Of a stretch of 64,000 nucleotides of DNA, positions 1 to 37,921 are shown piece after piece. How positions within the stretch are numbered: position 1 is the first letter of the stretch; every line of letters starts with the position of its first letter. Origin of the DNA: a virus (lineage: Duplodnaviria > Heunggongvirae > Uroviricota > Caudoviricetes); IMG/VR virus record IMGVR_UViG_3300009709_000002, positions 296,228-360,227 of that record. One strand, written 5' to 3'. Made by a program: the position numbers and the translations under genes. Below the pieces are notes generated by a model. That model was not told where the DNA came from. It made no database searches and was given only the letters and a program-made list of their open reading frames with translations.

Positions 1-256
1 TCTAAATTGACCATATCAACATTCCACTGATCAGACGTAAATGGACATTTAAATTCTACCGGGGTGCCGCCATGGCCAATTCTTGTAGATGCTACACGAA
101 TGTGACTATCATTCACTCCGTTTGTGATAACACCATCTTTAAATTCAACAGGTGTTTTGTAAGCTACACCAAGACTATGAACGTTATTTTCTTCAACAAA
201 TTTAGCCCATTCTTCTTGTGTGACGTTGGCTTCTTTCAGGTATTGTTTGAATCTCA
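1..256 (-). CDS. Family-A paralog, truncated by window edge (N-term MRFKQYLKEANVTQEEWAKF...)
   Basis: Minus-frame translation from ATG at 254-256 overlaps upstream stop (ATGA); N-terminus resembles other Family-A members. Confidence 0.6.
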
Positions 257-2599: not shown

Positions 2600-2642
2600 G
2601 GAATACTCCCAGATGATTATGGGAGTATTTATGAGTTAGATT

Positions 2643-6962: not shown

Positions 6963-6999
6963 TTAGAAACTCCAATGTTTAGATGGAGTATTTATGAGC

Positions 7000-7653
7000 T
7001 TACAACTTCGCGTATTCGTCAAAACCTTTTTCAATCAGCTCATCCTGGCACTCAAGCATATTGTTTTCTTTGCCAATGTACTTCTTCACGATCTTGAAAG
7101 CTTCAATCCCCTTCATGTGCGCGTCGGTACCACGGCTACCGCCAGGTCCAAACTGCATCTCGAATTCACCTAGCTTGAGCAATGATAGCAGACCACAATC
7201 AAACGTGGTGCTATTTGAGAAATAGACGTACTCAGGTTTTATCGCAACTAGCTGCTTCAGAGATTTTACCGTGTACGGATGAAAGTATATGTCTTCATAG
7301 TGCAGCTTAGGAAGAACACTTTCATCCGTGAAGACTCCGCCATTCACGTTAATCGCGATAGGATCTTTCAGTTGAGGAAAATAGAATCGAAATTCATCAG
7401 CAGAGATAGGGCAGGCTGACAACGTAGATGAACCATTCTTTACTACGAAGTCAATACCAAAATATTGATAGTTAAGCTTGATCGGCTTACCAATCTGGAA
7501 TGATTTTTCAAGAACTCGCTTTGGATTAGGCAGATTTTTACCATTGCCAATGCGAATTCGAACGTGATCAAACCACCAGGCAATTTGTTCTTCAGAAAGA
7601 GCCATGGTGGAATCATCTTCCTCAGCTTCAAACAGAATTTCTTGTAACTTCAT
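7000..7653 (-). CDS. Family-A paralog
   Basis: C-term CQDELIEKGFDEYAKL. Confidence 0.8.
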   Translation of the reverse strand: MKLQEILFEAEEDDSTMALSEEQIAWWFDHVRIRIGNGKNLPNPKRVLEKSFQIGKPIKLNYQYFGIDFVVKNGSSTLSACPISADEFRFYFPQLKDPIAINVNGGVFTDESVLPKLHYEDIYFHPYTVKSLKQLVAIKPEYVYFSNSTTFDCGLLSLLKLGEFEMQFGPGGSRGTDAHMKGIEAFKIVKKYIGKENNMLECQDELIEKGFDEYAKL

Positions 7654-7693
7654 TAACTAACTCCAATTAAGATGGAGTATTTATGAGCTTACA

Positions 7694-8416
7694 TTACAAC
7701 TTCGCGAAATCCTCAAATCCAGCGTCGATCAGCTCGGTCTGCAGGTCAACCTTACTACGTTCTAGCACAGGCAGCTTCAAGTGCTTGTTGATGATATCAG
7801 CCATCTCATTATGCCGACCAATTCCATCTTCTTTCGAAAAGCTACTGAAAAACATCACCTCTTCCAGAATTGGTGACTTCAACAATTGAAGCACGCCCGG
7901 CTTATGCTCATTCTGATTGCAGTTATACAATCTCAACCTACGAACGTACGTCTTCTCGATCCCTTCAAAGGAGCGCACGTTGCAGTCCACCAGCGTTATG
8001 CCTTGGATGCGCTGGTTGAGCTGATCTAGAGTGGAGAACTTGTACTGGCACAGCGTCATCCACGGTGCTCCCCAGTTAATGTTTCTTGGAACTTCAAATT
8101 CCGTTCCTAAGTTCTTGGCGGTGATCTTGATCTCACTGCTCATGTGGTCGAACTGACGATTCGCCTGCATTCGCCACCAATCGACGAACTCTTTGGCCGG
8201 ATCGCTTTGGTGATTCCGAACTTCTACAGTATTCTTCATGGCGAACTCTCGCCATTGACGTTGGAACTCTAGCTCTTTTTCTTTCTCGTCCAGGAGCATC
8301 ATATCGTTCTTTCCTATGCTACCGCGAAGCGGCGGAAATTTTTCTAAGCACCTAAGAATGATTCTATCACCTTTCATGGTAGAAGTAAAGGATGCTTCAA
8401 CCTTTTCTCGCTTCAA
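7694..8416 (-). CDS. Family-A paralog
   Basis: C-term LQTELIDAGFEDFAKL. Confidence 0.8.
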   Translation of the reverse strand: MKREKVEASFTSTMKGDRIILRCLEKFPPLRGSIGKNDMMLLDEKEKELEFQRQWREFAMKNTVEVRNHQSDPAKEFVDWWRMQANRQFDHMSSEIKITAKNLGTEFEVPRNINWGAPWMTLCQYKFSTLDQLNQRIQGITLVDCNVRSFEGIEKTYVRRLRLYNCNQNEHKPGVLQLLKSPILEEVMFFSSFSKEDGIGRHNEMADIINKHLKLPVLERSKVDLQTELIDAGFEDFAKL

Positions 8417-8979
8417 AGTTCAGCATACTCATCGAGACCAGCATCGAGCATGGCAGATTGGCACGCGACGATGTCACGATCTTTCAAGTGCTTCCTAACG
8501 ATGCCTAACGCAAGCTCCAACCGCGTAGCATGAACGTTGGCGAAGATGATAGCTTCTAGGCGTGGCAGCTTCAGCAATCTCAGCAGGCCGCAATTGAAAT
8601 GGGCTCCATAGTTCAACCCAACAATATACAGCAGCTCTAGATTCTTTAAGCGATCAACGCCTTTTAGCGTTTCCACCTGCAGCCCATGAAGGCTGAGACT
8701 CTTCACCAAGGTAGGAAAGCCTTCCCAATCATTTAAGACAAGAAGCTTCGCCGGTCTGGCCATGATGTCGAGATGGCGTAGGTAAGCCTCACCGAAGGGC
8801 CAGTAGAAGGGATCTTCATTGTTCAGCTTAGGAGACACGATCAAATTATTGATGTGCATGCGAACGTTGTTCTTACTATCAAAGATCGCATCATACCGCT
8901 CGGGTGTTACCGTCGCTTTACCAGGCTCTTGGAGCTCATATTTGTCCAGCCAGTCTAATCCTTCGAGAGCTGTGGTCAT
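8413..8979 (-). CDS. Family-A paralog (GC-richer)
   Basis: C-term CQSAMLDAGLDEYAEL. Confidence 0.8.
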   Translation of the reverse strand: MTTALEGLDWLDKYELQEPGKATVTPERYDAIFDSKNNVRMHINNLIVSPKLNNEDPFYWPFGEAYLRHLDIMARPAKLLVLNDWEGFPTLVKSLSLHGLQVETLKGVDRLKNLELLYIVGLNYGAHFNCGLLRLLKLPRLEAIIFANVHATRLELALGIVRKHLKDRDIVACQSAMLDAGLDEYAEL

Positions 8980-9590
8980 AGCTTGGCATACTCCTCATAA
9001 CCCTTCTCGATGAGCTCCGACTGGCAGGCGATGATATCCCGCTCAGCACCATCTTCAGTCAGGTACGTTTCCACGATCCACAAGACGTCTTTTAGCCGAC
9101 GCTCTACGTTGACGGATCCACAGTTGATCCGGGTCAATTTCGGACACTTCAAGAGCCGAAGCAGCCCGCACGTTATGATTGTTCCATGCTGGTGCCCTTC
9201 AACGTAGAGCGAATGCATGTTTTCTAGCCTCTCCACGTTCTTGAACGTTTCGACGTGTAGCCCAGACAGATGGACGTAACGTACCGACGTTGGCAGCTCA
9301 TCCCAGCTCTTCAGCGCCAAACGCTGGTTAGTATTCTGCATGATGTTGAGAGACACTATATCCGCTTCACCGAACGGCCAGTAGAATCCACGAGGATTTC
9401 CGTAGAACTTGTTCGCCGTAATGTTCAGTTCACAGAAACCGTCGCGCAGCGTCTTCGTCGCATTGTCGAAGAGCTGATCAGCTCTAACCACAGTAATACC
9501 GGTGTCGATGTTGGTCGCCGCAACACCAAAATCAGACATGTACCGAACGATCGACATGTCAGTATCATTGTAGACTCCCGCCGCGCTCAT
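8976..9590 (-). CDS. Family-A paralog
   Basis: C-term CQSELIEKGYEEYAKL. Confidence 0.8.
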   Translation of the reverse strand: MSAAGVYNDTDMSIVRYMSDFGVAATNIDTGITVVRADQLFDNATKTLRDGFCELNITANKFYGNPRGFYWPFGEADIVSLNIMQNTNQRLALKSWDELPTSVRYVHLSGLHVETFKNVERLENMHSLYVEGHQHGTIITCGLLRLLKCPKLTRINCGSVNVERRLKDVLWIVETYLTEDGAERDIIACQSELIEKGYEEYAKL

Positions 9591-9599
9591 AGTAGCTCC

Positions 9600-10229
9600 T
9601 CACAGTTTCGCATATTCTTCTAAGCCTGAGTCGATCAGCTCCGACTGGCAGGCGACGATGTCCTTCAGCTCTAAATGCTTCTTCACGATAGATAAAGCAT
9701 CATGCTGTCTCTTATGCTCACCATCATAAGAAACTCCGATCATCCTCAGCTTAGGTAGCTTCAGCAACCGCAGCACTCCAAGCTCTTCCAACTGGAAAGG
9801 CCGACGCACCGCTCCGTTCAGAATCAGCTCCTCCAAGTTCTGCAACCGTTCAATTCCTTTGAGAGACGACACGATAGTTCCATGAAAGACCAGGCGGTGC
9901 AGGCTCTCAGGAAAATCACTCCACCCCTCCACACGAAACTGCCTAGGAATCATGCCGGTCTTAATGATAAACGAGATCAAGCCAACCGACATCACCTCCA
10001 GCTTCGCGCCGCCGAACGGCCACTCGAACCTTATAGGTTCATCTCCGTCTAGCTTCTGACAAATGTTCACCTTCACGACGTCATCCAACAGCCGAGCGCT
10101 CTTCACGTCAAAGATGTTCAGCAATGACTTCATCAGCTCGCCATTCTTCAGCACCGCGTTGACTTCATAGTCTCTTAGGTAGTCGGCCAGTACGAAAGGA
10201 TGGTTCATAAGCTCTCTTGTCACTTCCAT
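9600..10229 (-). CDS. Family-A paralog (first gene of the array)
   Basis: C-term CQSELIDSGLEEYAKL; followed upstream by a 700-bp noncoding region. Confidence 0.8.
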   Translation of the reverse strand: MEVTRELMNHPFVLADYLRDYEVNAVLKNGELMKSLLNIFDVKSARLLDDVVKVNICQKLDGDEPIRFEWPFGGAKLEVMSVGLISFIIKTGMIPRQFRVEGWSDFPESLHRLVFHGTIVSSLKGIERLQNLEELILNGAVRRPFQLEELGVLRLLKLPKLRMIGVSYDGEHKRQHDALSIVKKHLELKDIVACQSELIDSGLEEYAKL

Positions 10230-11454: not shown

Positions 11455-11484
11455 ATTATAACATCAACGGAGGAAGATGTAAAC
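11455..11484 (-). promoter_or_regulatory. T4-early-type sigma70 promoter (GTTTAC, 17 nt, TGnTATAAT)
   Basis: Minus strand reads GTTTACatcttcctccgttgaTGtTATAATagtc, followed by AAGGAGT RBS. Confidence 0.6.
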
Positions 11485-12914: not shown

Positions 12915-13052
12915 TTACCAGAACTTCTTGATGAAGTGAATGATGACGTAGTACTCGGCCGAGACTACTCCGATCACTATAGCGATGAAGGCGAGAGCGA
13001 TGAAAGCGCCGATAACTTCAGGAAGAGTAAAGCCTTTTTGCTTCTTAAGCAT
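12915..13052 (-). CDS. small membrane protein (46 aa)
   Basis: Hand translation MLKKQKGFTLPEVIGAFIALAFIAIVIGVV...; AAGGAG RBS; promoter upstream. Confidence 0.5.
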   Translation of the reverse strand: MLKKQKGFTLPEVIGAFIALAFIAIVIGVVSAEYYVIIHFIKKFW

Positions 13053-13077
13053 GGTAGCTCCTTGGTTGAGATAGAGC

Positions 13078-13108
13078 TATTCTAATACACTTACAGGAAG
13101 TTGTAAAA
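13078..13108 (-). promoter_or_regulatory. early-type promoter (TTTTAC...TAGAAT)
   Basis: Motif match. Confidence 0.4.
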
Positions 13109-13331
13109 CTCTTCTCAACTCTATCATAAGAATTCATGAGAGGTCTTTAGAGGTCCTGCTTAAGATTGATTGTATGGTTATCCAAACTATAACACGAGGA
13201 TCACTCAAGGTTCATGCGTCATAGCCTGCCTATTTACTTTGCCGCAATGATATGTTAGAATATAATTGGAGGATAAGTGAGTAACTCTTGCTTACTCTCA
13301 CAACAAAGGAGACCTTTCGATCTCCCTTTGA

Positions 13332-13763
13332 TTACGCGATTTGAATCGCGGTCTGTGCATCCCACTTCGGGTGAGCAGCTTCCGCGTACGTACGAGCCTG
13401 CGACGGAGTGCGAGCGGTCGTCTCGTGGAACTTGATCTCGTCCTTGTACTCACCACGACCGGTCAGCTTCACCCGGTACTTCGGCAGCTTCGAGCGGACG
13501 GTGACCGGAAGTTCTTTCGGGAGCTGCCAACGATCACAGCCCGGACCAGCGGTCTCGCGAGTCGCGATCCTCGGTTCATCCGGCTTGTCAGCCTTCTTCG
13601 TCCGCGTCTTGGGTTCATCAGCTACTGCAGGCGCCGGAGCTTCGAAGAGCTCGTCCAGCTTATTAGCCTGCTTCGGCGGGGTGTTGAAGATAGGGTCACG
13701 GCTGTCGATCATTGTAGAAGTTCTCGTGAAGGGAGGTAAAAAAGAGGGAGAGGCCAGCTTCAC
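13332..13763 (-). CDS. hypothetical protein
   Basis: ORF in GC-rich block. Confidence 0.5.
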   Translation of the reverse strand: MKLASPSFLPPFTRTSTMIDSRDPIFNTPPKQANKLDELFEAPAPAVADEPKTRTKKADKPDEPRIATRETAGPGCDRWQLPKELPVTVRSKLPKYRVKLTGRGEYKDEIKFHETTARTPSQARTYAEAAHPKWDAQTAIQIA

Positions 13764-13961
13764 CTCTCCCTAAGAGCGTTGTGTTACCCGATGCAGCGCG
13801 GCGTTCCGCTTACCATCCACCCAGGGTTCTGAGTGCGAGCGGAGGACGCGGCTCCTGCTTCGGTGTTCGCCTCAACCGAGACGACGCGAATTTGGCTGGA
13901 CGAAGTACTACGAAGTGAGACGCTGTAGATCTTCATGGTACTTCTCCAGGTTAGGTACTGC

Positions 13962-14501
13962 TTAAGCGGCGCGGACGAAGCGGGGCAGGAAGCGGCCGGC
14001 GTTCGGTTGACCCTTGGGGATGCGAACCAGCTCGCCTTCACCCTTCGGCGGGGAGAACTTCAGCGGATCGTAGCCGAGATCGGTTGCAGCTTCCGTCTTA
14101 GCGGCCGGAACTTCTTCAGCCTTCGGGCCGGCGAGCAGCAGCGGAGCAGCGGGTTCGACGGCGGTTTCGGTCTTCACCGGCACGATGTTCTCGGTAGCAA
14201 TCTTCAGCGGAGCACGAGTGACGTACTTCGCGAGATCGGCGGCCGTGATCTCCTTGCCTTGCAGGTCAGCCGCGACGACGAAGGCACCGGCGCGAACTCC
14301 CTTTTCCTTCTGGCGAACCACAGCACCGGCGCGCTTGAGAGCGTACAGCATGGTGCGCGCGGTGGCCGGCGAGCGGCCCATGTCCTTGACAGCATCCGCG
14401 AGAGCCGAGACGATGTCTTCTTGCTTCTTGCCCGGGTTAGCCGCGACGAAATCGAAAACGTTCTTGGCGACGAGGAATTGTTGGTTTGCAGCGTTTGCCA
14501 T
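13962..14501 (-). CDS. hypothetical protein (start at MANAANQQF)
   Basis: AAGGAGAAACAAC RBS before ATG at 14499-14501; promoter at 14555-14584. Confidence 0.6.
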   Translation of the reverse strand: MANAANQQFLVAKNVFDFVAANPGKKQEDIVSALADAVKDMGRSPATARTMLYALKRAGAVVRQKEKGVRAGAFVVAADLQGKEITAADLAKYVTRAPLKIATENIVPVKTETAVEPAAPLLLAGPKAEEVPAAKTEAATDLGYDPLKFSPPKGEGELVRIPKGQPNAGRFLPRFVRAA

Positions 14502-14554
14502 GTTGTTTCTCCTTGCTTCGGTTTGGTTGGATCGGTTTAGGTTACCGTAAGATA

Positions 14555-14584
14555 ATTCTAACATCATAGTTGAACGTTGTAAAC
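14555..14584 (-). promoter_or_regulatory. T4-early-type promoter
   Basis: GTTTACaacgttcaactatgaTGtTAGAAT. Confidence 0.55.
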
Positions 14585-14590
14585 ACCTTT

Positions 14591-14800
14591 TCAACTACTT
14601 TGTGCAACTTTTTCAACCGTGATGAGGAACACCTCGCCGTTGAGCGCCGTGTACTCGATGTCGATAAAGTGGTAGCCGGCGCAGGTTTTCGCATCGGCCA
14701 TCGCAGCATCCAACGTCGGCCACGGTTCGGAGACGACCTTAACATCACGCTCCTGATTGTGGTCGTACTTACCAGCGATTACTTGGAAGGTTCCGTTCAT
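14591..14800 (-). CDS. hypothetical small protein
   Basis: ORF with upstream promoter-like motif. Confidence 0.5.
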   Translation of the reverse strand: MNGTFQVIAGKYDHNQERDVKVVSEPWPTLDAAMADAKTCAGYHFIDIEYTALNGEVFLITVEKVAQSS

Positions 14801-14828
14801 GACGATCTCCGTCAGTTGATGTTAAGAC

Positions 14829-14860
14829 TATTCTATCCTACCTATAGGAGGAAGTAAAGG
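14829..14860 (-). promoter_or_regulatory. early-type promoter (CTTTAC...TAGAAT)
   Basis: Motif match. Confidence 0.4.
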
Positions 14861-14872
14861 ACTCTTCAACTC

Positions 14873-15130
14873 TCAGACCGACTCGTTCAGCAGGTGAAAC
14901 CAGTGCTTATCTAGCGCGTCTTTGTACCGCGTACCGCACGCCTTCTCGATGCTCGTCTGGTTGAAGTCGGTTGCGAACCGGTTCATGATCGCCGTCTGCA
15001 GCTCATTCAACCACACGCCGAACGTGCTAAACGACTTGAAGTCGCCTAGGTTCGTCTCGTCCAGCCGCTTGCCCATCACCACCATATCACCGTTCAACAT
15101 AGCTGCTCCTACGCGCCGTTTCAAACTCAC
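14873..15130 (-). CDS. hypothetical protein
   Basis: ORF track. Confidence 0.45.
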   Translation of the reverse strand: MSLKRRVGAAMLNGDMVVMGKRLDETNLGDFKSFSTFGVWLNELQTAIMNRFATDFNQTSIEKACGTRYKDALDKHWFHLLNESV

Positions 15131-15278
15131 TGGATAGCCAAGCTATCACCGTCACCAATATAGCGGCTGGAGCTTCCCACCCAAAGAACTTCGTGAGGAT
15201 GGTGCCTAATATTATAGCCACCGTCCAAGGCAGCACTACCACCAGAAATACTCCAACTATCACGTCCAAAGTCTTCAT
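15087..15278 (-). CDS. small membrane protein
   Basis: Hydrophobic helices. Confidence 0.45.
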   Translation of the reverse strand: MKTLDVIVGVFLVVVLPWTVAIILGTILTKFFGWEAPAAILVTVIAWLSSEFETARRSSYVER

Positions 15279-15391
15279 GTGCTCTCCAAGATGATCCTTT
15301 CTATTCTATCACAGCTATAGGAGAATGTAAACAGGAAAATATACTTAAGCTCTATAGCTAGATACAATAGGCTTATAACCCGAGGATCACC

Positions 15392-15577
15392 ATGTTTTTC
15401 TTTCGCACTCGCTATAGGATCGTCCTAGACACTTACTCCGGCTTTGAGGCACAGTACCGGCCCTGGTGGTCACCATTCTACCTGCAGATCGGTGGAACTA
15501 ACACCAGCTCATCCTTAGCCGAAGCTCGTAAGATAGTTGACAATCATAAGCACCACGTGGTCTGGCAAGGCTACTAA
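15392..15577 (+). CDS. hypothetical small protein (plus-strand mini-operon)
   Basis: ORF preceded by a CTATAGG-type motif. Confidence 0.4.
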   Translation: MFFFRTRYRIVLDTYSGFEAQYRPWWSPFYLQIGGTNTSSSLAEARKIVDNHKHHVVWQGY

Positions 15578-15642
15578 CTCTTGTTTACTCTCTCCTATAG
15601 CTATGATAGAATGAATCCATCGTAGCTATAGGGACAAAGTGA

Positions 15643-15831
15643 ATGGTAAACTTGGAACAAGGCAGGATCGAGCTGCTCTCGCTAATTACCGAGACCTCCA
15701 ACGACATCGTCTTCTTGGAGCGCGGCTTCGCTTACCTGCACACGCCGAACGCCATCCACCTGGCCCGCGAGCACATCAAGGAGAAGCAATCGCTCCTGAA
15801 GAAGCTCCAATCTGTTTACAACCAGCTATAG
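15643..15831 (+). CDS. hypothetical small protein
   Basis: AGCTATAGGGAcaaagtgaATG context. Confidence 0.45.
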   Translation: MVNLEQGRIELLSLITETSNDIVFLERGFAYLHTPNAIHLAREHIKEKQSLLKKLQSVYNQL

Positions 15832-15837
15832 GGATAG

Positions 15838-15948
15838 TATGGAACCGGACCGCTACTGCGAATCCTGCAAGAAGATGTGCTCTCAGTGGGGCGGAGGCTG
15901 GCTCTACGGTCGTTGGTGCTGCGCCTGGTGCCTTAAGTGAAAGCTCCG
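15838..15948 (+). CDS. Cys-rich mini-protein (MEPDRYCESCKKMCSQWGGGWLYGRWCCAWCLK)
   Basis: Hand translation; CTATAGGGA motif upstream. Confidence 0.35.
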
Positions 15949-16114
15949 GTCTTCGAGTTCACCGTCACCTACTCCTATAGGTTCAACCCTATGTATGAGA
16001 ACACGATCAAGGTGAGGGTAACTCAGGCCGACTTTGAGCGCTATGAGCGACCCTACTACCAGAAGTACTTCATCCTGAAGAAAGTTGTTCAACGCAAGCT
16101 ATAGGGAGTATTGA

Positions 16115-16324
16115 ATGTTCCTCGAAGTTACCCTCGCCGAAACAGGCACTCGCGGTCGTAAGAAGACGCTCAACCTCATGCAGATCGCCAGCATCGAGCA
16201 AGACACGCACTCGACCAAGATCGTGATGCACCACGGTGGCGGCCAGATCTACTACGTGAACGAGACCTACGACTCGCTCATCAACCTGATCGCCGAAGAA
16301 GGGCTGCTCATCCGATTGGCTTAA
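16115..16324 (+). CDS. hypothetical small protein
   Basis: CTATAGGGAgtattgaATG context. Confidence 0.45.
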   Translation: MFLEVTLAETGTRGRKKTLNLMQIASIEQDTHSTKIVMHHGGGQIYYVNETYDSLINLIAEEGLLIRLA

Positions 16325-16394
16325 GCACCCTATAGGGATAGACACAACAAATAGCCGAGGATCACTCACTCGGCTAGACCTCCCTACGACCGAC

Positions 16395-16622
16395 TTATCT
16401 TGCCGATCTATCGCCCATGCTCTGCGCGCATAACTTCATGTAGTTATTCGCCGACCTCTGCTTGCTCAGCTTCAGCTCACGCTGCCCATCGGTCAACCCG
16501 CCAAACGGCTTACCCTCCGCAGACAACCTAGCCTGCAGCTCAACGATCTCCATCTCGGTCCAAGGTGCCGAGTGATCTACCGCCATCAGCTCTGCCATGC
16601 TTTTCCCTCCAAAGATGTTCAT
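16395..16622 (-). CDS. hypothetical small protein
   Basis: ORF track. Confidence 0.4.
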   Translation of the reverse strand: MNIFGGKSMAELMAVDHSAPWTEMEIVELQARLSAEGKPFGGLTDGQRELKLSKQRSANNYMKLCAQSMGDRSAR

Positions 16623-16710
16623 AAGACTTCGCCCGCTTCCCGGTCCACACAGCTAGAACTCAATCCAGCTATAGGATGTATTTCAACCTTGACTATTGTT
16701 CAACCATCAA

Positions 16711-16926
16711 CTAACGACCGATGATCGCCTTGCAGAGGTCTAGGTAGCTCTGCTGACTCCTCATCTCCTTCAGCACTCGATTCTTCTCTCGAGTCGTCAT
16801 GCTGTCCCACAGCTTCCCGCTCGTTTCACTCAGCTCAGCCAGCATCTTGTTCTTCGCGGCCTCGATCTCTTCATCCGTATAGGGAACAAAGACATCCTTA
16901 GGCACGGTCTTCGGCTCAGCGTCCAT
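16711..16926 (-). CDS. hypothetical small protein
   Basis: Promoter and TATAGGGGAAGAG RBS upstream. Confidence 0.5.
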   Translation of the reverse strand: MDAEPKTVPKDVFVPYTDEEIEAAKNKMLAELSETSGKLWDSMTTREKNRVLKEMRSQQSYLDLCKAIIGR

Positions 16927-16960
16927 TCAACTCTTCCCCTATAGCTTATACACTAAGAAT

Positions 16961-16990
16961 ATTGTAACATATAGCTTAGAAGAAGTAAAC
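16961..16990 (-). promoter_or_regulatory. T4-early-type promoter
   Basis: GTTTACttcttctaagctataTGtTACAAT. Confidence 0.55.
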
Positions 16991-16999
16991 ACGTTCGCC

Positions 17000-17760
17000 G
17001 TGACACTTTGACCCAGGCTTGAGTGAGCGCTAGAGTTCGTTTGATGCCTTAGATCTGCGAGAGAGTTCTTCCGTGACGGTGAAAGTTCTTCCGAAAATAA
17101 AGTGTAACAGCGGTTTACTTTCTTTGAATAGTGTTATATGCTTTGCTTTGACCTCGGCCAACGTTGACTCGCTCTTGAGACACCGCTAGAGTTCGTTTGA
17201 TGCCTTAGTAGAATGAATATAGACGAGAGCTCTCTCATGTGCTATAGATGTATGAGAGGCTTATAGGTAGTAGAATGAGAATGTGAACCTGCTCTCTCGT
17301 GTATGATAGATGTATGAGAGGCTAATAGGTAGTAGAATGAGAATGGAGGAGAGCTCTCTCATGTGCTATAGATGTATGGGAGGCTATAAGGCGAGAATGC
17401 TTGTGTGCTATAGAAGCAGAGACCTATAGTGAGGTAGCATACCATGTAGGAGTAGTATGTAAGTGAGATTTTTCTCGCTCTCAGTCTATAGGGAGATGAG
17501 TAGCTGAGTGTATAGCTCTATCTGTATTAGATGAATGTATAAGTGAGTGAGCTATAGGGAGATAGTGATAAAATTTTCTTGAGGATACTATAGGAGTATG
17601 ACTTATAGCTGATTAGGATATTTCGGGTATTAAATGTCTCGCTTTTTGATGGTTTTGGGTGAGATTGTTTACTAGAATGGGAGGTGAGGGGTTTAGAATG
17701 TTGAATATGTCGTTCAACTAAGGCACTTTTGGGGTCTTTTGAGATGGGTGCTTGAGATAG
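17000..17760. repeat. noncoding repeat region: three tandem ~60-bp repeats plus a duplicated 23-bp GCTAGAGTTCGTTTGATGCCTTAG element
   Basis: Direct repeats at 17226-17285, 17290-17345 and 17350-17400; duplicates at 17031 and 17186. Confidence 0.6.
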
Positions 17761-17761
17761 G

Positions 17762-18325
17762 TCAGGAGGCCTTCTGCTTAGTAGCCTCTATCGTGGAGGT
17801 GTGAGCGGGTATAGAAACGTCAAGAATGTTGGTTGTAGAGTCATCTTGCTCTATAGGTCTAGTCTTCCTATAGCTAGATGGGAGTACTTCTTGCGCGGGG
17901 AGTGAGTCATAGAGCTCGTTCAGCTCGGCCTTTAGCTTCTTCGCTCTATTGTCATGTCGCTCGGCGTACATCAGCGCCGTTTGAGCGGTGAGCTTACGGC
18001 CGTCTAGCGGAGCGATGAGCAGCCCGTCTACAGGTGGGGAGAAGTAAACTTGGAGCCAGTAGTCACGGTGGCTCAGGGAGATCTTCAGGCGGGATTGTAG
18101 CTCGGCGAGCTTCTCTTGTCTCATAAGGTCGTTTAGCCTCTCGGTGAATCGGATCGCCTGCTGCTCATAGGTCTCGATGTAGTGGGTGTATCTCTCGATC
18201 GCATGCGGATCGGTAGAGTCTTTAAGCCGCTTCGTAAAGATCCTAACACAAGCTTGAGCGCGGGAGATCACTCTCTCGAGTTTCTCTTTTTTGGTGGGTG
18301 GATCGATGAAAGGTCTGGGGCTCAT
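17762..18325 (-). CDS. Family-B protein (C-term LPSSYRKTRPIEQ)
   Basis: Conserved C-terminal motif; variable N-terminal body. Confidence 0.7.
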   Translation of the reverse strand: MSPRPFIDPPTKKEKLERVISRAQACVRIFTKRLKDSTDPHAIERYTHYIETYEQQAIRFTERLNDLMRQEKLAELQSRLKISLSHRDYWLQVYFSPPVDGLLIAPLDGRKLTAQTALMYAERHDNRAKKLKAELNELYDSLPAQEVLPSSYRKTRPIEQDDSTTNILDVSIPAHTSTIEATKQKAS

Positions 18326-18608
18326 CTTGCTCTATAGGTCTGGTCTTGTTGAAGCTGGTAGGGAGTACTTCAGCTGGGTCTTGGTCGGCTTGAAATTTGG
18401 CGAGCAGCCAGCGCAGCTGACGTTGAAAGTACTCGAGATCTTGCCTGTACTGAGCGATAGTTCTATTATCTGACTCGATAACGTGAGGTCGATCTTCACT
18501 ATCACGCAGCTCCGTCATTCTCCGAATGAGCATTTCGGTAGTTCGAATGCGGCGCTCGAGGCGCTCTTGCTCTGACTTCTGTGTGTGCAGGTAGCTCATC
18601 TGAGGCAT
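18243..18608 (-). CDS. Family-B protein (EVLPTSFNKTRPIEQ)
   Basis: Motif; tail overlaps next gene. Confidence 0.7.
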   Translation of the reverse strand: MPQMSYLHTQKSEQERLERRIRTTEMLIRRMTELRDSEDRPHVIESDNRTIAQYRQDLEYFQRQLRWLLAKFQADQDPAEVLPTSFNKTRPIEQDEPQTFHRSTHQKRETRESDLPRSSLC

Positions 18609-18855
18609 CTTCTATAGGTCTAGCTCGGAAGCTGGTGGGTAGTACTTCAATCTCTTCCTTCTGCAGGTACTCTTTGACCTTGACTAGACGGTCGCGCACC
18701 GCGGTGTAGCCGTCGACTCCACCCTGCCAATAGTCTCTAGTTACTTGGTGAACAGCTCTATCACGGGCTCGAGCGCAGTAATCGATGCTGAAGTCCTGGT
18801 GGCCGATGCACTCGTCAATGTTCTCTAAGCTTAGGGTGATTGTTCGGTTTGACAT
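18502..18855 (-). CDS. Family-B protein (EVLPTSFRARPIED)
   Basis: Motif. Confidence 0.7.
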   Translation of the reverse strand: MSNRTITLSLENIDECIGHQDFSIDYCARARDRAVHQVTRDYWQGGVDGYTAVRDRLVKVKEYLQKEEIEVLPTSFRARPIEDASDELPAHTEVRARAPRAPHSNYRNAHSENDGAA

Positions 18856-19174
18856 GAATGATCTTCTGCTGGTAAAGAGCTTCCTGCTCTTCGGTAGGTC
18901 TGGGGCGGCCGAAGCTGGTCGGGAAGAGCTCTTTGAAGGGCTTGTTGACCTCGAGGTAGCGCGCTTTTTCCTTTCGCCAGTAGGTAATCTTAGCCTGATA
19001 TATCTCTACATACTTGAGCACGTTCTCGACGGTGTGCTTGCGGCCAGCGGTGTCGTAAAGGAGACCGTCTTCCGGCTTAGTGTCGGAGAAGTAGACGTCA
19101 TACCAGTAGCGTAAGCTAACGGATTCATACTCGATTATAGAGTCATAGCGTTCGATTACTTTCGGATCGATCAT
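18815..19174 (-). CDS. Family-B protein (ELFPTSFGRPRPTEEQ)
   Basis: Motif. Confidence 0.7.
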   Translation of the reverse strand: MIDPKVIERYDSIIEYESVSLRYWYDVYFSDTKPEDGLLYDTAGRKHTVENVLKYVEIYQAKITYWRKEKARYLEVNKPFKELFPTSFGRPRPTEEQEALYQQKIIHVKPNNHPKLREH

Positions 19175-19487
19175 GCGGAGCTCGCGGTAAGGTTAGTTGG
19201 ATAGTAGCTTCTTCCTGCTCGATCGGTCGTGAGCGCTTAAAGCTGGTCGGGAGTACTTCAGCCACGTGCTGTCGTTCAGCTTCAAGCAGGAGCTCTAAGG
19301 TGTCTTTGCGCTCGGCGATAACTCCCTCGAGGTAGGATTCCATCGACTTGAAGTTCATGACCAGCCAACCTACCGACTCAAGCTCCTTCTCTTCATAACT
19401 CAGCCGAGTCTCGATAGTGCCGTTTAGCATCTTCTCGTACTCTTTGATCGACGTTTCGAGGTAAGCTATTTCTTCCGGGTAGTTCAT
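19143..19487 (-). CDS. Family-B protein (EVLPTSFKRSRPIEQ)
   Basis: Motif. Confidence 0.7.
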   Translation of the reverse strand: MNYPEEIAYLETSIKEYEKMLNGTIETRLSYEEKELESVGWLVMNFKSMESYLEGVIAERKDTLELLLEAERQHVAEVLPTSFKRSRPIEQEEATIQLTLPRAPHDRSESNRTL

Positions 19488-19830
19488 GGGCTTGGTCCTC
19501 TAAGAGACTGGTAGCTTCTAGCGGTCTGGTCTTCTGGAAGCTTGTTGGTAGCACTTCAATCGGTTCTGCTTTGAGAGCTTCTATCTTTCTCTGGTGATTT
19601 TCATTCAGCTCGTCGATGTAGCGGCTGTAGTACTCAATACACGAGATCGCATGGTTGAGGTAACCGTCATCAAAGTCATTCATCTCTCGCTGCAGCTCCA
19701 GCTGAAGGTCTCTTGTTTTTATCCAAGCTCTACGGCACCGGTTCAGCTCATCATATCGTTTGCTGTAATCCAGGTGCGCCCGCTCGTTGATGGTTTCCCA
19801 CATCGCTTGCATCAGATTGTTCATGGTCAT
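19393..19830 (-). CDS. Family-B protein (EVLPTSFQKTRPLE)
   Basis: Motif. Confidence 0.7.
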   Translation of the reverse strand: MTMNNLMQAMWETINERAHLDYSKRYDELNRCRRAWIKTRDLQLELQREMNDFDDGYLNHAISCIEYYSRYIDELNENHQRKIEALKAEPIEVLPTSFQKTRPLEATSLLEDQAHELPGRNSLPRNVDQRVREDAKRHYRDSAEL

Positions 19831-20278
19831 AGGCGTTAAGCTGTCTGCTTTTATTTAGCGAGTTGGGTAACACTTCAACGGTCGCTTCACCTCGTTTTTC
19901 TGCGCAGTTTTTGATGTAGATCTCTGCATCATGCAGAACAGCGAGGTAATGCTTGATCTTCGCCTGGCACAGGTCGATGTGCGCCTGGTCATTAGACATC
20001 TCAGCTTCACCAAGGTGAGCATACCAGCTGGCCAACCAATACGTAGCGGCATTGACCTTCGCTTTATACATACGTTGTTCACGTCGAGCGACTTGGCCGT
20101 GTTCACACTCGACTAGAGCATCAAGAAAGGCTTTCCGTTCCGGTGACTCGCCGAACTCCAGCGCTTCGGCAGTCGGCTTCCGTCCACGTATACTCTGAAG
20201 AATCTCTTCCGATCTGTTCAGCATGATTCGCCTTGTGAGTAAATTTGTTGGGTAGCAGCTCGACATGCCCTCGTTCAC
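19751..20278 (-). CDS. Family-B protein (EVLPNSLNKSRQLN)
   Basis: Motif, divergent. Confidence 0.65.
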   Translation of the reverse strand: MNEGMSSCYPTNLLTRRIMLNRSEEILQSIRGRKPTAEALEFGESPERKAFLDALVECEHGQVARREQRMYKAKVNAATYWLASWYAHLGEAEMSNDQAHIDLCQAKIKHYLAVLHDAEIYIKNCAEKRGEATVEVLPNSLNKSRQLNAYDHEQSDASDVGNHQRAGAPGLQQTI

Positions 20279-20498
20279 ACATCTCTATCATCGAAACGAA
20301 CTTAGCCATGCGCTGCTCGTACTCTATTACAGACGCTAAGATGTTACTCTGTTGCTCAAACGTCAGTTTGACGTTGTGATCCCAGTGATCATCAAGCTGG
20401 CAGAGTAGCCTTTCTCTCGCTCGGCATAAAGATTCGTGGCATCGACGCAAGAAGGTTAGCGTGTCTTCCTGGCTGCTCTGTTCTATCGTCAGCATCAA
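20121..20498 (-). CDS. Family-B protein (ELLPNKFTHKANHAEQ)
   Basis: Motif, divergent. Confidence 0.6.
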   Translation of the reverse strand: MMLTIEQSSQEDTLTFLRRCHESLCRARERLLCQLDDHWDHNVKLTFEQQSNILASVIEYEQRMAKFVSMIEMCERGHVELLPNKFTHKANHAEQIGRDSSEYTWTEADCRSAGVRRVTGTESLS

Positions 20499-20850
20499 TC
20501 ACCCGCTTAGGTTTGTTGGGTAACACTTCTACTACTTGATTCTCGATCGCTGCAAGCTCTTCTATTCTCGCTTTTAGCCAATCGACATTATGCTGCATCA
20601 TCTTCTTAACGATCTTTATTCGTCTAACCAACACAGCTTCCTTAGCAGCATTGTACTCAGGATTATCGCCGGTGCGAGCGAGTCGAATTTGCTCATCGAT
20701 CATTTTATCAAGCTTGCGCCAATCTTGAAACAAAGCGTCGCTCGTCACCACGTACACTTCATAGTGCTCAGCTTTAACTCGTCCGCATGCAGTGATCACG
20801 ATCGACTGATCGTATGGGTCGTAGTTGGTGTACGTGCGTAGTGTTTTCAT
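20392..20850 (-). CDS. Family-B protein (EVLPNKPKRVIDAD)
   Basis: Motif. Confidence 0.65.
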   Translation of the reverse strand: MKTLRTYTNYDPYDQSIVITACGRVKAEHYEVYVVTSDALFQDWRKLDKMIDEQIRLARTGDNPEYNAAKEAVLVRRIKIVKKMMQHNVDWLKARIEELAAIENQVVEVLPNKPKRVIDADDRTEQPGRHANLLASMPRIFMPSERKATLPA

Positions 20851-21190
20851 CTAATTGCCTCTGCTTCTTGAATGAGGTAGGAAGCACTTCAACTGGTGGG
20901 GTAGTGAATGCAGCGATCTGCTCTTTCAATACATCAAGAGCTCTTTCCATCGCAGCATCATGCTCGGTGATTTTCTCTATCGCCTCAGTGTGAAGCTCTT
21001 CATTGTACTTGTCACGCTCTTCATACCACAATCGAACCTGCTCTTCTTCAATTCTTTCCCACTTACGACGTGCCGACCAGAGCTCACCGTGACTTCTTAT
21101 GTACACCATGTATGACGGAACATCCACCTGGCCCCAGACCGTGTTGCACCATGCGACCGGCGTGTTGGTATGAAGGTTCGGTTGATTCAT
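20774..21190 (-). CDS. Family-B protein (EVLPTSFKKQRQLDE)
   Basis: Motif. Confidence 0.7.
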   Translation of the reverse strand: MNQPNLHTNTPVAWCNTVWGQVDVPSYMVYIRSHGELWSARRKWERIEEEQVRLWYEERDKYNEELHTEAIEKITEHDAAMERALDVLKEQIAAFTTPPVEVLPTSFKKQRQLDENTTHVHQLRPIRSVDRDHCMRTS

Positions 21191-21470
21191 GGCTATCCTC
21201 GTGTGGTCTTAGTTTAAATGAAGTAGGAAGCACTTCCGCTACATCTTCGGCATCTTGAAGTTTACTCATGAGCTCGCGCTCTACTTCTCTATTCTTCTCT
21301 ATGAGCTCACTGTAATACTCGATGCCGATCTCGTGCGTCTCGTAAGACAGTTCTTGCTCCAACGCGTTGATGATAGCTCTCGTTATCGTCAATTGATTCT
21401 TCAATTCCGGCGCTGTCATCTTTGTTCTTCTTAAAGCTCGTTGGAAGCACTTCAGGGTGTTGATGTTCAT
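21084..21470 (-). CDS. Family-B protein (EVLPTSFKLRPHED)
   Basis: Motif. Confidence 0.7.
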   Translation of the reverse strand: MNINTLKCFQRALRRTKMTAPELKNQLTITRAIINALEQELSYETHEIGIEYYSELIEKNREVERELMSKLQDAEDVAEVLPTSFKLRPHEDSHESTEPSYQHAGRMVQHGLGPGGCSVIHGVHKKSR

Positions 21471-21774
21471 GGAGTTCTATGACCTTCTTAGCAGCTTGAA
21501 TCGACATCGCTTGGTCTGTCAAAAACTCTGGCTTATAGTGCACAAACAGCCGAATGTAGTCCTTGGCATCTTCGATCGACACCATCAGGTGAGCGTCATC
21601 ATCTCGACCATAAAGTGACAGCATCGTGTACATCAGGTCTCTGAAGTGAACGAACTCGTCCGTCGTCTCATCAGCTGGATTGTTCATGAAAATCCTTGTT
21701 TGCTGCTGACAAGTTGCCAAGATAAACTTCTCGTGCGGTGTTAGTGAGTGAGCACTGCATGAAGATGTCTTCAT
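21307..21774 (-). CDS. Family-B protein (EVLPTSFKKNKDD)
   Basis: Motif. Confidence 0.7.
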   Translation of the reverse strand: MKTSSCSAHSLTPHEKFILATCQQQTRIFMNNPADETTDEFVHFRDLMYTMLSLYGRDDDAHLMVSIEDAKDYIRLFVHYKPEFLTDQAMSIQAAKKVIELHEHQHPEVLPTSFKKNKDDSAGIEESIDDNESYHQRVGARTVLRDARDRHRVLQ

Positions 21775-22111
21775 TCGTTCTTTTCAACTCTCTTTGTTTC
21801 TTCACGAAAGAGCTTGGTAGCATCTCCGTGAATTCTTCATCTCGCTTAGCAAGCTCTATTCTACGTTTCGCTACTTGAAACGTAGTTGAGTTAACGCTTG
21901 CCTCTAACGCTTCGTGCCGATTCTTGAAGAACAAATCGATGTAGAGCTCCGCCTGCTCAGGAGTTATCTCCATGAAGTGCTCATACGTCATGTAACCTTG
22001 CATCATCACGTGGAACAGCTGTTGATAGCGAGGATCTTTTTCTCCAAACGTTTTCGTCTGGAGAATGTCTTTGTCACTCGATAGATGCAGCTGCGGCCAT
22101 GATTGTGTCAT
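21671..22111 (-). CDS. Family-B protein (EMLPSSFVKKQRELK)
   Basis: Motif. Confidence 0.7.
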   Translation of the reverse strand: MTQSWPQLHLSSDKDILQTKTFGEKDPRYQQLFHVMMQGYMTYEHFMEITPEQAELYIDLFFKNRHEALEASVNSTTFQVAKRRIELAKRDEEFTEMLPSSFVKKQRELKRTNEDIFMQCSLTNTAREVYLGNLSAANKDFHEQSS

Positions 22112-37874: not shown

Positions 37875-37904
37875 CGTTAGAGTAATTATAACATCAACGG
37901 TTGA
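37875..37904 (-). promoter_or_regulatory. early-type promoter (ATTTAC...TATAAT)
   Basis: Motif match. Confidence 0.45.
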
Positions 37905-37921
37905 AGAAGTAAATGGCTTTC

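Follow-up and report, generated by a model that had tools for sequence, protein, structure and literature searches.

What might a phage gain from a repeat-dense stretch of DNA that carries no gene? This question was approached in silico for the window, i.e. the whole stretch of 64,000 nucleotides of phage DNA analysed here. The locus extends from 16927 to 17761 (835 nt). No other stretch of the window that lacks ORFs of at least 50 aa in every frame is as long; the next-longest has 430 nt. A preliminary description had placed it at 17000-17760, which is approximately right, the true borders being slightly wider. With a probability of roughly 40% we read it, from its sequence, as a control region that lies where two leftward transcription units meet, within the early portion of a large, hitherto undescribed phage. 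It looks like the boundary or control region of a lineage-specific early module of tiny genes marked by a "CTATAG box". The features of the region and of the adjoining module are as follows.

14842 to 16335, both strands: rest of the box module, with spacer boxes, pre-ATG boxes and a palindrome
16328 to 16337: the palindrome, CCCTATAGGG, in the box module
16926, minus strand: ATG of a 71-aa gene, the left neighbour of the region
16936 to 16944, minus strand: box CTATAGGGG, at about +11 of the promoter at 16989(-) and 18 nt before the ATG of the 71-aa gene
16961 to 16989, minus strand: predicted leftward early promoter for the 71-aa gene, TTTACT-17-TACAAT, with TG upstream of the -10 element
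17005 to 17052, plus strand: copy 1 of a 48-nt repeat, with the promoter-like site P1 (TTGACC-17-TAGAGT, 17008-17036)
17061 to 17093: 13-nt direct repeats GAGAGTTCTTCCG and GAAAGTTCTTCCG, 20 nt apart (repeat search), identical in the close relative L002
17114 to 17142, plus strand: third rightward promoter candidate, TTTACT-17-TATGCT, between P1 and P2
17161 to 17208, plus strand: copy 2 of the 48-nt repeat, with the promoter-like site P2 (TTGACT-17-TAGAGT, 17164-17192)
17206 to 17391, plus strand: three 62-nt tandem units, each made up of a conserved core (about 42 nt, TGTGCTATAGATGTATGAGAGGCTWWTAGGTAGTAGAATGA) and a variable linker (about 20 nt)
17392 to 17620, plus strand: decayed units together with unique sequence; boxes are located at 17408, 17424, 17486, 17552 and 17588
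17621 to 17761: G/T-rich tail; on the minus strand this is an unstructured 3' untranslated RNA, rich in C and poor in G, that belongs to a 187-aa gene
17762 to 17764, minus strand: stop codon of the 187-aa gene, the right neighbour of the region

Gene content and relatives of the region

The absence of ORFs reported in the preliminary description is borne out. The longest ORF inside the region has 43 aa, the codon-usage score is below zero in each of the six frames, and gene calls on two independent public assemblies leave the region without genes as well. ORF length, codon bias, conserved frame and similarity to neighbouring paralogues gave neither a protein-coding gene nor a pseudogene. A pseudogene of the adjacent paralogue family in particular was rejected, as a tblastn search with ten adjacent paralogues (17762-21190) was negative.

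Homologue searches led to a single close genome, L002, to the 3.8-kb fragment L009 and to two distant fragments, L010 and L011, neither of which extends to the region; the region itself was compared with the single relative L002. None of its small ORFs is retained between the window and L002. A 38-aa candidate was discarded as a peptide gene since the differences between both genomes are mostly non-synonymous, and so was a 39-aa ORF (17310-17429) which is destroyed by the deletion of a repeat unit in L002. Neither the region nor the 187-aa and the 420-aa protein had a match in DNA and protein searches of the phage database, and a 695-aa protein had only distant matches there with about 52% identity. 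No further relatives came from four scans of viral and metagenome contigs for DNA patterns or from locus searches with the 187-aa and the 179-aa protein, and the loci obtained with the Nuc_deoxyri_tr2 protein were all unrelated and had no box clusters. No T4 core gene was recognised within the 64-kb window.

According to the preliminary description, absence of the repeats from relatives would have spoken against its reading; L002 keeps both the region and the repeats. It has two 62-nt units instead of three, with a net gap of 61 nt, and of all parts of the region the array varies most between the two genomes. As a whole the region differs from L002 more than the rest does (16.8% compared to 7.0%). 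Extra conservation was not accepted as a sign of function: the region does not rise above the genome background in this comparison, and the similarity of 17508-17761 to L002 is matched by 16% of all windows of 254 nt.

Promoters and repeat units

The window contains a promoter class of its own. The pattern TTTACW-17-TAnAAT has 31 regex matches compared to 3.0 in shuffled sequences, nearly all of them upstream of minus-strand genes, and a scan of 10-20 kb with the promoter consensus found 20 sites compared to 7.3. The consensus of the class consists of an A-rich upstream part, GTTTACW, a 17-nt spacer with TG, TAnAAT and a conserved downstream stretch. The predicted leftward promoter at 16989-16961 has the hexamers and spacing of a sigma-70-type promoter and also belongs to this class: with a position weight matrix (PWM) built from 22 other promoters of the phage it reaches 35.9 bits, which is in the top 0.01% of positions. 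In L002 both of its hexamers are retained while spacer and flanks have diverged. The best reading is that the phage, as predicted from these sites, transcribes with the host sigma-70 RNA polymerase from T4-early-style promoters. This is in agreement with the T4 early promoters ('UP/-35/TGn/-10'), where extended-style host sigma-70 promoters are likewise repeated before many small genes (PMC2988021).

The rightward sites are of a different kind. The preliminary description had reported a duplicated 23-mer; the duplication is real, and actually belongs to a 48-nt direct repeat with 83% identity between the copies, whose core of 25 nt (CGCTAGAGTTCGTTTGATGCCTTAG) is exact. P1 and P2 are this duplicated element itself. 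Both match the sigma-70 consensus at 9 of 12 positions, with the hexamers 17 bp apart, and the differences between the copies are concentrated in the spacer (6 of 17 positions, compared to 2 of 31 elsewhere; Fisher p = 0.017). Copy 1 is identical in L002. The hexamers taken alone place P1 and P2 only in the top 0.03-0.06% of positions, corresponding to about 40-70 sites per window. Scored with the full PWM (-16.5 and -15.4 bits) neither belongs to the extended early-promoter class of the phage, and the likeness of that class to the T4 early promoters does not include these predicted promoters. The site at 17114-17142 is the weakest of the three rightward candidates. All of its differences to L002 (17124, 17125, 17128 and 17129) are located in the spacer, and both hexamers are retained. 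Among the functions suggested in the preliminary description, a promoter cluster finds support in the predicted leftward class promoter together with two or three rightward sigma-70-like sites.

Downstream of P2 the TRF program reports one array (17206-17386, period 62, 2.9 copies, 79% matches, score 234), and a repeat search places in-register copies with 75-91% identity at 17206, 17268 and 17330. Alignment identifies 17424-17485 and 17486-17551 as further, decayed copies of the unit. The three tandem repeats of about 60 bp mentioned in the preliminary description were thereby confirmed as three copies with a period of 62 nt, to which at least two decayed ones have to be added. The boxes of the right-hand part (CTATAGGGAGAT at 17486 and 17552, CTATAGGAG at 17588) extend the array period with spacings of 62 and 66 nt, and are retained in L002 even amid diverged flanks, e.g. 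at 17486. In its composition 17206-17761 stands out with 10% C, 30% G and a GC skew of +0.49, and it includes the most C-poor 500 nt of the window. A CRISPR array was rejected, as about 42 nt of the unit are conserved and only about 20 nt vary, that part still being partly similar between units.

The CTATAG box and its possible role

CTATAGG occurs 24 times in the window compared to 2.87 +/- 1.88 times in shuffled sequences, and 22 of the 24 sites are located within 14841-18618. CTATAG is found seven times inside 17242-17588. The "many TATAGG boxes" of the preliminary description are correct insofar as the region is rich in boxes, but with only four plus-strand TATAGG within 17000-17760, "many TATAG/CTATAG" is the better wording. 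The box has the asymmetric form (A)GCTATAGG(G)A and marks a 3-kb module that extends beyond 17000-17760. Its spread over this module of tiny genes had been missed in the preliminary description. Not all occurrences are candidates for regulatory sites: those at 17851, 17868, 18332 and 18612 belong to the codons of a conserved protein motif (residues RPIE and SYR), and the one at 15412 is also coding.

Two arrangements of the box recur. In the promoters at 14858(-), 15331(-) and 15584(+) CTATAG occupies spacer positions 6-11. Exactly 3 of the 22 class promoters share this register, and they are adjacent to one another. The boxes are antisense to their promoters, and the three spacers are alike beyond the box, too. 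In the distant relative L011 the three orthologous promoters keep their hexamers, with three different spacers, all of them box-free. The second arrangement concerns start codons. The plus-strand genes at 15643, 15839, 15992 and 16115 have a box 13-17 nt before the ATG, and in five genes the distance between box and ATG is 13-18 nt. All six exact copies of CTATAGGGA (15626-17552) are on the plus strand, an orientation that follows the plus-strand gene island and the direction of P1 and P2, and the single box preceding a minus-strand gene is on the minus strand. The 3' half of the latter, CTATAGGGG at 16936-16944, also constitutes the Shine-Dalgarno sequence of the 71-aa gene. The CTATAG sites are retained in L002 in 21 of 22 cases; the boxes around 16939 and 17486 form islands of identity there, the former amid diverged flanks.

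The layout of the region can be described in these terms. At its left edge the predicted leftward class promoter is followed by the CTATAGGGG box, then by a ribosome-binding site and finally by the 71-aa gene. P1 and P2, and perhaps the third site, oppose this promoter and face an array of at least five units of 62-66 nt with one CTATAG box each. A box at -24 to -19 in the 17-bp spacer, or at +7 to +20, has a position where a bound protein blocks RNA polymerase, from which we infer an operator-like role. The box might thus be the cis-site of a lineage-specific factor controlling the module. The array, as the densest cluster of sites on an untranslated rightward transcript, would then serve as a roadblock or sink. 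One should keep in mind that gene conversion or the spread of a cassette, without selection for the box, could explain the three similar spacers.

No box-binding protein was identified among the 71-aa and 179-aa candidates examined. The structure model of the 71-aa protein is a plain two-helix hairpin (pLDDT 86.6), and the 179-aa protein has winged-helix matches below threshold and is also present in the box-free L011; both were rejected as regulators. Activator sites resembling MotA boxes were rejected as well, as a manual check gave no consistent -10 element 12 +/- 1 bp downstream of the boxes (PMC2988021).

On the more specific proposal that the box represents a new lineage-specific control of early genes we remain sceptical and rate it as unlikely. 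According to it an 11-nt asymmetric site would have been introduced into the spacers of three host-type promoters and before five tiny genes, and later multiplied into the tandem array on an untranslated transcript. The site would be recognised by a phage factor that switches the module off, with the array acting as a DNA or RNA decoy or timer. A factor in the form of a small-promoter RNA polymerase with a promoter core equal to that of T7 is less likely. We know of no T4 counterpart of the CTATAG box. The immunity repressor sites of temperate phages, i.e. the stoperators of mycobacteriophage L5 and the C1 operators of phage P1, are spread over the genome. They resemble the box as short asymmetric sites that are repeated in intergenic positions near gene starts or stops, oriented with transcription and overlapping promoters, but the sites reported here are confined to 3 kb, include a dense tandem array and come with no known repressor. 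If the box is truly regulatory, this would be a compact case of a lytic phage that superimposes a control layer of its own on early promoters of the host type. The box-free distant relative, which has these promoters too, provides a natural comparison, and the copy number of the array varies from strain to strain.

A further hint towards a boundary function arises from the leftward RNA. Rho sites are unstructured, often C-rich parts of untranslated RNA, and separate immediate-early from delayed-early genes in T4 (PMC2988021). The minus-strand RNA of the region contains 30% C and 10% G over 556 nt, and its first part (17765 to 17640, 126 nt) has a minimum free energy of only -6.5 kcal/mol. It shows what is expected of a rut region, being untranslated, richer in C than in G and weakly structured for at least 80 nt after a stop codon. 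In the control-region reading this C-rich RNA would be a likely loading zone for Rho, where the 13-gene operon upstream would end ahead of the next promoter. The likeness to Rho-dependent terminators (T4 immediate-early/delayed-early, lambda tR1) consists of a long untranslated, C-rich, G-poor and unstructured RNA, here directly after the stop codon and before the next promoter (PMC2988021). The tract of 560 nt differs from them in far exceeding the need of a rut site, and its skewed composition may simply mirror that of the repeat units.

Competing explanations

The alternative that survives best, possible though doubtful, regards the region as a relic of recombination. Function would be limited to the leftward promoter, perhaps with a terminator, and the rest would be decayed, repeatedly duplicated "gene-start cassettes" of promoter and 5'-UTR, with the box as a mere part of the cassette sequence. 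Mobile promoter-terminator cassettes of this kind (PeSLs) shuffle small early genes in T4-type phages (PMC2839356, PMC4122927). The cassette-wise replacement seen between relatives there (PMC4122927) has its parallel here, as the window and L002 differ by whole-cassette replacements, and promoter-RBS cassettes are repeated elsewhere in the window. Within the region a box followed by a Shine-Dalgarno-like sequence, an ATG and an immediate stop recurs at 17486 (3 codons), 17588 (4 codons) and 17443 (ATG-TAG), and 17510-17566 weakly resembles the promoter-UTR cassette of 16989 in inverted orientation. The variable unit number and the background-level conservation reported above also fit a relic. 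However, 835 nt without use would be unusual where the next-longest ORF-free stretch is about half as long, and the boxes are intact amid diverged flanks. The common spacer register in three promoters whose orthologues have unrelated spacers is a further argument against debris. The segments that diverge between the window and L002 have no boxes at their bounds, and the boxes were therefore rejected as joints of cassette recombination. If the region is recombination debris after all, it documents cassette shuffling outside the T4 group.

Clearly less probable is a functional noncoding RNA, i.e. a rightward transcript in which the motif known from the translation starts of the module's mRNAs is repeated about seven times. 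It could be a decoy for an RNA-binding repressor or nuclease, an antisense RNA into the 13-gene operon, or a mimic of a ToxI-like antitoxin. The boxes of the array share their sense with those preceding start codons, and the predicted tandem promoters face a region without ORFs. In the 7-bp stem CTCTCAT/ATGAGAG two changes between units keep G-U pairs, on the plus strand only, and the variable number of units resembles arrays of repeat RNAs. The search for structure gave a different picture. In the window only tRNAs pass the Rfam gathering threshold, and for 16600-18000, searched to E = 10, nothing is better than E = 0.77, with two weak and implausible matches. Folding z-scores range from -0.2 to -1.8 for the units and amount to -0.63 for the whole plus strand; the -3.84 of the whole minus strand arises because its C/A-rich shuffles fold poorly. 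In the hairpin of the repeat none of 11 pairs has changed on both sides, shuffles equal the observed values, and the stem is broken in one unit of L002. With unremarkable z-scores and without compensatory changes a structured RNA was rejected, and the small RNAs considered in the preliminary description find no positive support. An unstructured rightward transcript is still predicted from the putative promoters. The boxes that are antisense in non-transcribed promoter spacers are left unexplained by a motif acting in RNA, and a convincing terminator was not found. ToxI-type antitoxin RNAs consist of short tandem units of variable copy number in an ORF-free stretch downstream of a sigma-70 promoter. 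The 62-nt units described here differ from them in being 75-91% and not nearly identical, in lacking an Rfam match and in having no toxin gene; as no plus-strand ORF follows, a type III antitoxin array was rejected.

To the same low degree we consider a replication origin primed by transcription, which was also among the early suggestions. A G-rich untranslated rightward RNA would remain annealed as an R-loop in the AT-richer part at 17530-17650 and prime DNA synthesis, with the boxes as iterons for an initiator. The layout is reminiscent of an origin: transcription is predicted to diverge, a predicted tandem promoter pair is present, and direct repeats are evenly spaced (62 nt in three units, then 62 and 66 nt). 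The composition shifts locally, A+T rising to 65-70% over 17530-17650 compared to about 53% in the window. T4 origins are found near transcriptional divergence and compositional shifts, and oriE combines an early promoter with evenly spaced 12-nt repeats (PMC3016281). In oriF and oriG a promoter is combined with an unwinding element. In these respects, and in the early promoter with an untranslated transcript, predicted here, the region is comparable to oriE, oriF and oriG (PMC3016281). The differences to oriE are a period of 62-66 nt in place of closely spaced 12-mers, the lack of genes like repEA or repEB, and boxes that spread over neighbouring gene starts across 3 kb, which is unusual for iterons. 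Moreover, the role of the oriE repeats is unproven even in T4 (PMC3016281). Within 16.9-17.8 kb no DnaA box (TTATCCACA-like) was found. Proteins neighbouring the region gave no match to replication families, with no adjacent initiator, helicase or primase gene. Cumulative GC skew bumps only locally without a switch, the genes being on the same strand on both sides. The rise in A+T is modest and does not mark the A+T-richest stretch of the window, and with 30% G the RNA is well below typical R-loop-forming tracts, the G runs being far from the promoters. As an origin the region would offer a handle on replication in a lineage known only from few metagenomic contigs. Neither this outcome nor recombination debris or a private control layer would overturn current ideas.

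It is very improbable that the boxes are promoters of a phage-encoded RNA polymerase, with transcripts that start at GGGA and carry the Shine-Dalgarno sequence at their extreme 5' end. The T7 class III promoter consensus is TAATACGACTCACTATAGGGAGA. The 11-mer CTATAGGGAGA, which occurs twice in exact form (17486 and 17552), is identical to positions -5 to +6 of that promoter, and the six copies of CTATAGGGA are all in sense direction 10-17 nt before start codons. Yet conservation over about 23 bp (-17 to +6) as in T7 was not found; only about -7 to +6 (nAGCTATAGGGAg) is common to 13 copies, with nothing conserved upstream of -7, whereas single-subunit polymerases read about -17 to -5. The part from -17 to -6 of the T7 promoter thus has no conserved equivalent here. 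The motif is limited to 3 kb, the other 60 kb being motif-free and full of sigma-70-type promoters, and three copies are antisense inside host-type promoters. The window has no polymerase gene or ORF of that size, its largest protein (695 aa) being a DUF8224 protein.

A genome end or packaging signal, i.e. a terminal-repeat boundary, pac or cos site next to early genes as in T7 or T5, is scarcely credible: the general resemblance of a repeat-rich noncoding stretch beside tandem strong early promoters is set against contigs of two independent samples that read through the region unbroken and end elsewhere, in paralogue arrays or genes, no terminase gene being nearby, so that nothing favours the packaging option of the preliminary description. 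The left end of T7 carries the tandem early promoters A1-A2-A3. The region shares with it tandem host-type promoters, predicted here, at the head of a noncoding repeat-bearing stretch, and differs from it in that they face converging genes and not an early operon.

Repeats of the gene-free region

The region (16927–17761) is bordered on the left by the start codon (16926) of a 71-aa gene and on the right by the stop codon (17762) of a 187-aa gene. As the preliminary description had it, the region holds no ORF: nothing longer than 43 aa occurs between the borders, codon-usage scores are negative in all frames, and gene callers left the region empty both in the assembly of the window's genome and in that of L002 (Logan SRR23815405), a mosaic contig of ~91–93% identity that is the single close relative. 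It is the longest stretch of the window without an ORF of at least 50 aa (835 nt compared to 430 nt). The 187-aa ORF at its right border is truly coding on the − strand, with 18/13/43 differences from L002 at codon positions 1/2/3.

The three tandem repeats of about 60 bp described at first sight were recovered by the tandem repeats finder (TRF) suggested along with them, which reported one array only (17206–17386, period 62, 2.9 copies, 79% matches, score 234), and by a repeat search with three copies of the 62-nt unit in register. The duplicated 23-mer corresponds to the identical final 25 nt of a 48-nt direct repeat found by the same search (17005–17052 and 17161–17208). In an alignment of segments centred on a short CTATAG motif (the “box”), 17424–17485 and 17486–17551 appear as decayed copies of the 62-nt unit; the array therefore comprises at least five units and reaches ~17620. 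Neither the repeat unit nor the promoter look-alikes P1 and P2 (listed below) have a further copy elsewhere in the window.

Absence of the repeats in relatives had been named as an argument against the observation. L002 retains the whole region, with two units compared to three in the window and a net gap of 61 nt. The two sequences differ at 7 of 212 positions in 17005–17216 and at 5 of 254 in 17508–17761; 21 of 22 CTATAG sites are kept, and the boxes at 16939 and 17486 form islands of identity amid diverged flanks. This similarity is not exceptional, being reached by 16% of the 254-nt windows in the alignment, and the region overall differs from L002 more than the remainder does; conservation alone therefore does not demonstrate a function. 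The region-derived patterns had no match in viral or metagenome collections, nor had the region itself or the 187-aa and 420-aa proteins in the phage database. No Rfam family, folding signal beyond shuffles, covariation in the repeat hairpin or conserved small ORF was found in the region; a pseudogene of the neighbouring paralogue family was considered and not found.

Promoters and the CTATAG box

An origin, a promoter cluster, small RNAs and a packaging or processing signal had been proposed for the region. The sequence supports the promoter cluster, with one predicted leftward promoter of the phage's own early class and two or three rightward promoter-like sites:

16989–16961, − strand: leftward class promoter, 35.9 bits (PWM from 22 class promoters)
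17008–17036, + strand (rightward): P1, TTGACC-17-TAGAGT, promoter look-alike in one copy of the 48-nt repeat
17114–17142, + strand (rightward): third promoter candidate, TTTACT-17-TATGCT, with four L002 differences, all within the spacer
17164–17192, + strand (rightward): P2, TTGACT-17-TAGAGT, promoter look-alike in the other copy of the 48-nt repeat

The class, TTTAC(A/T)-17-TA(T/G/C)AAT, has 31 sites in the window by loose regular expression compared to 3.0 in shuffles, nearly all immediately upstream of − strand genes. Its extended UP/-35/TGn/-10 style is that described for T4 early promoters (PMC2988021). Due to its score the leftward site is the predicted promoter of the 71-aa gene. P1 and P2 do not fit the extended profile of the phage and are therefore plausible, not certain, promoters. 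Between the 48-nt copies, 6 of 17 positions differ in the spacer compared to 2 of 31 elsewhere (p = 0.017), the pattern one would predict if function depends on the hexamers and on the first 18 transcribed bases.

The full class consensus reads AA.A...GTTTACWTC.TC......TGATGATAnAATAATCCTA.CGT, with further − strand examples at 11455–11483, 37885–37913, 38247–38275 and 63083–63111, and several copies are near-identical promoter and RBS cassettes ahead of unrelated small genes. A minority-strand member (13233–13261, +, TTTACT-17-TAGAAT) lies in a 280-nt gap. Two hairpins come after it, a stable one and one that resembles a terminator and has a T-rich tail (13308–13335); no ORF follows, and 13233–13335 may be a small RNA gene.

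Of the 29 CTATAG sites in the window, 24 lie within 12977–18612; CTATAGG is present 24 times compared to 2.87 ± 1.88 expected. The sites at 17851, 17868, 18332 and 18612 were rejected as regulatory, being codons of the C-terminal motif EVLPTSFxKxRPIE in − strand reading. The remaining sites (14842–17588) occur in three settings. In three adjacent class promoters, 14858(−), 15331(−) and 15584(+), CTATAG occupies positions 6–11 of the 17-nt spacer, and it is missing from the spacers of the other 19. At gene starts, (A)GCTATAGGGA lies 13–18 nt ahead of the initiation codons of four + strand genes (15643, 15839, 15992, 16115) and of the 71-aa gene on the − strand, in sense orientation without exception; its GGGA is the predicted ribosome-binding site, and its TAG doubles in two cases as the stop codon of the preceding gene. 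The array, finally, holds seven sites, all oriented with P1 and P2, including two exact CTATAGGGAGAT copies 66 nt apart.

A phmmer search with a neighbouring 179-aa protein retrieved two more distant fragments, L010 and L011, in both of which the promoter class is present. L011 (JGI 3300056824) is syntenic with ~12.0 to 15.6 kb at 44–64% protein identity and stops short of the region, so that the comparison covers the promoters and not the array. L011 has the orthologues of all three promoters, in which the hexamers are conserved and the three spacers are unrelated in sequence and lack CTATAG. This confines the box layer to the lineage of the window and L002, where it arose through either selection or conversion between the three promoters.

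Potential role of the box array

Free of genes, the region separates a long leftward operon from the leftward unit that comes next: a predicted strong early promoter stands at one end, followed by two or three opposite-facing promoter-like sites and the box-centred repeat array. Tiny early genes over 3 kb make up the module marked by the box. The preliminary observation is real, and the region belongs to a familiar sort, the intergenic control regions of early phage genes in which promoter and operator-like elements are repeated. It is of interest mainly because the box layer is peculiar to this lineage and lends itself to testing.

Our tentative reading, to which we give a probability of about 40%, has three parts. 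The box could be the cis-site of a factor controlling the module; a location midway in a spacer of the optimal 17 bp, or at +7 to +20, is classic for repression, and like dispersed phage operators the box is asymmetric and follows the direction of transcription. The array would then gather many such sites closely together on a rightward transcript that is not translated. The region's leftward RNA, in turn, may terminate the upstream operon via Rho. No other 500 nt of the window are as poor in C as the + strand of 17206–17761 (10% C, 30% G), and RNA running leftward from the 187-aa gene would therefore be C-rich and G-poor; it is predicted to be almost unstructured (−6.5 kcal/mol over 126 nt), and corresponds to what textbooks give as a Rho loading site in RNA that is not translated (PMC2988021). 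In this phage the GC skew does not follow the direction of transcription, being negative in the + strand gene island, and the skew of 17206–17761 may simply stem from the composition of the repeat unit.

A less probable explanation, still a serious one, is that the region is left over from the duplication of cassettes, as known from T4-type PeSLs (PMC2839356, PMC4122927), of which the repeated promoter and RBS cassettes of this phage are reminiscent. We regard as unlikely a transcription-primed origin like T4 oriE (PMC3016281); the region contains no DnaA boxes. A decoy or antisense RNA appears equally improbable. Promoters of a phage polymerase are very improbable: CTATAGGGAGA resembles the T7 promoter core, but the likeness stops there, the copies having no upstream sequence in common; the motif is absent from the other 60 kb of the window, and the window contains no polymerase-sized gene. 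A genome end is the least credible of all.

Neighbouring genes and the phage genome

Immediately left of the region (16395–16926, −) are the genes of two paralogous proteins of 71 and 75 aa (28% identity, E = 1e-6), and the former is modelled with high confidence as a two-helix hairpin. To the right, a tandem family of 13 paralogues (17762–22111, −, ~115–190 aa) shares the C-terminal motif EVLPTSFxKxRP(I)E and little else. Each ORF tail overlaps the start of the following gene by ~80–110 nt in a different frame, the next ATG lying 10–12 nt past the RP codons. No Pfam or PHROG entry matches the family, which was found only in four Logan metagenome assemblies, among them the window's own genome (L003), L002 and a 3.8-kb fragment (L009).

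An island of five tiny genes (15392–16324, +; 61, 62, 33, 37 and 69 aa), confirmed by independent gene calls, interrupts the otherwise − strand genome. The 33-aa peptide has seven cysteines (MEPDRYCESCKKMCSQWGGGWLYGRWCCAWCLK). In L002 the 62-aa gene shows 100% identity, and the 69-aa gene is strongly diverged in its middle part. Where + and − strand genes converge, a perfect 10-bp palindrome (CCCTATAGGG) 3 nt past the last + strand stop is followed by a hairpin with a 7-bp stem (16353–16375); together (16328–16375) they are possibly a two-way terminator. In place of the 63-aa membrane-like gene at 15100–15281, L002 has a sequence that is unrelated or very diverged, between identical flanking promoter and RBS, an example of cassette-wise replacement. 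The 179-aa protein (13962–14501, −) is the only one of the neighbourhood with more distant homologues (70–74% identity to P0007 on L011 and P0008 on L010); its N-terminal segment has sub-threshold matches to PHROG 1324 “transcriptional activator” and to winged-helix DNA-binding families (Fe_dep_repress, HTH_IclR).

The window comes from a large, undescribed phage whose lineage is known only from a few metagenomic contigs, and nearly all its genes are on the − strand. The 695-aa protein belongs to PHROG 1735/DUF8224 (~52% identity to proteins of phiCbK-like phages and RSL1); most other window proteins found no match in our searches. The stretch from 35.5 to 58.2 kb (35500–58189) contains 30 tRNA genes, of which several are duplicated. 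In or near this zone (35500–63049, −) are genes for a CCA-adding tRNA nucleotidyltransferase (61263–62444), an RF-1-domain protein (48556–49014), an SPFH/Band-7 protein (60294–61109) and an R2K ATP-grasp protein (27601–28419). The same genome is found in public assemblies as a Logan SRR5829574 contig of 49,988 nt, 100% identical to window 233–50220. This contig breaks inside both of two long head-to-tail arrays of ~190–240-aa genes (254–10229 and 49444–52023, −), two tested members of which had no Pfam or PHROG match, and in which stops and starts are back-to-back or overlap by 4 nt.
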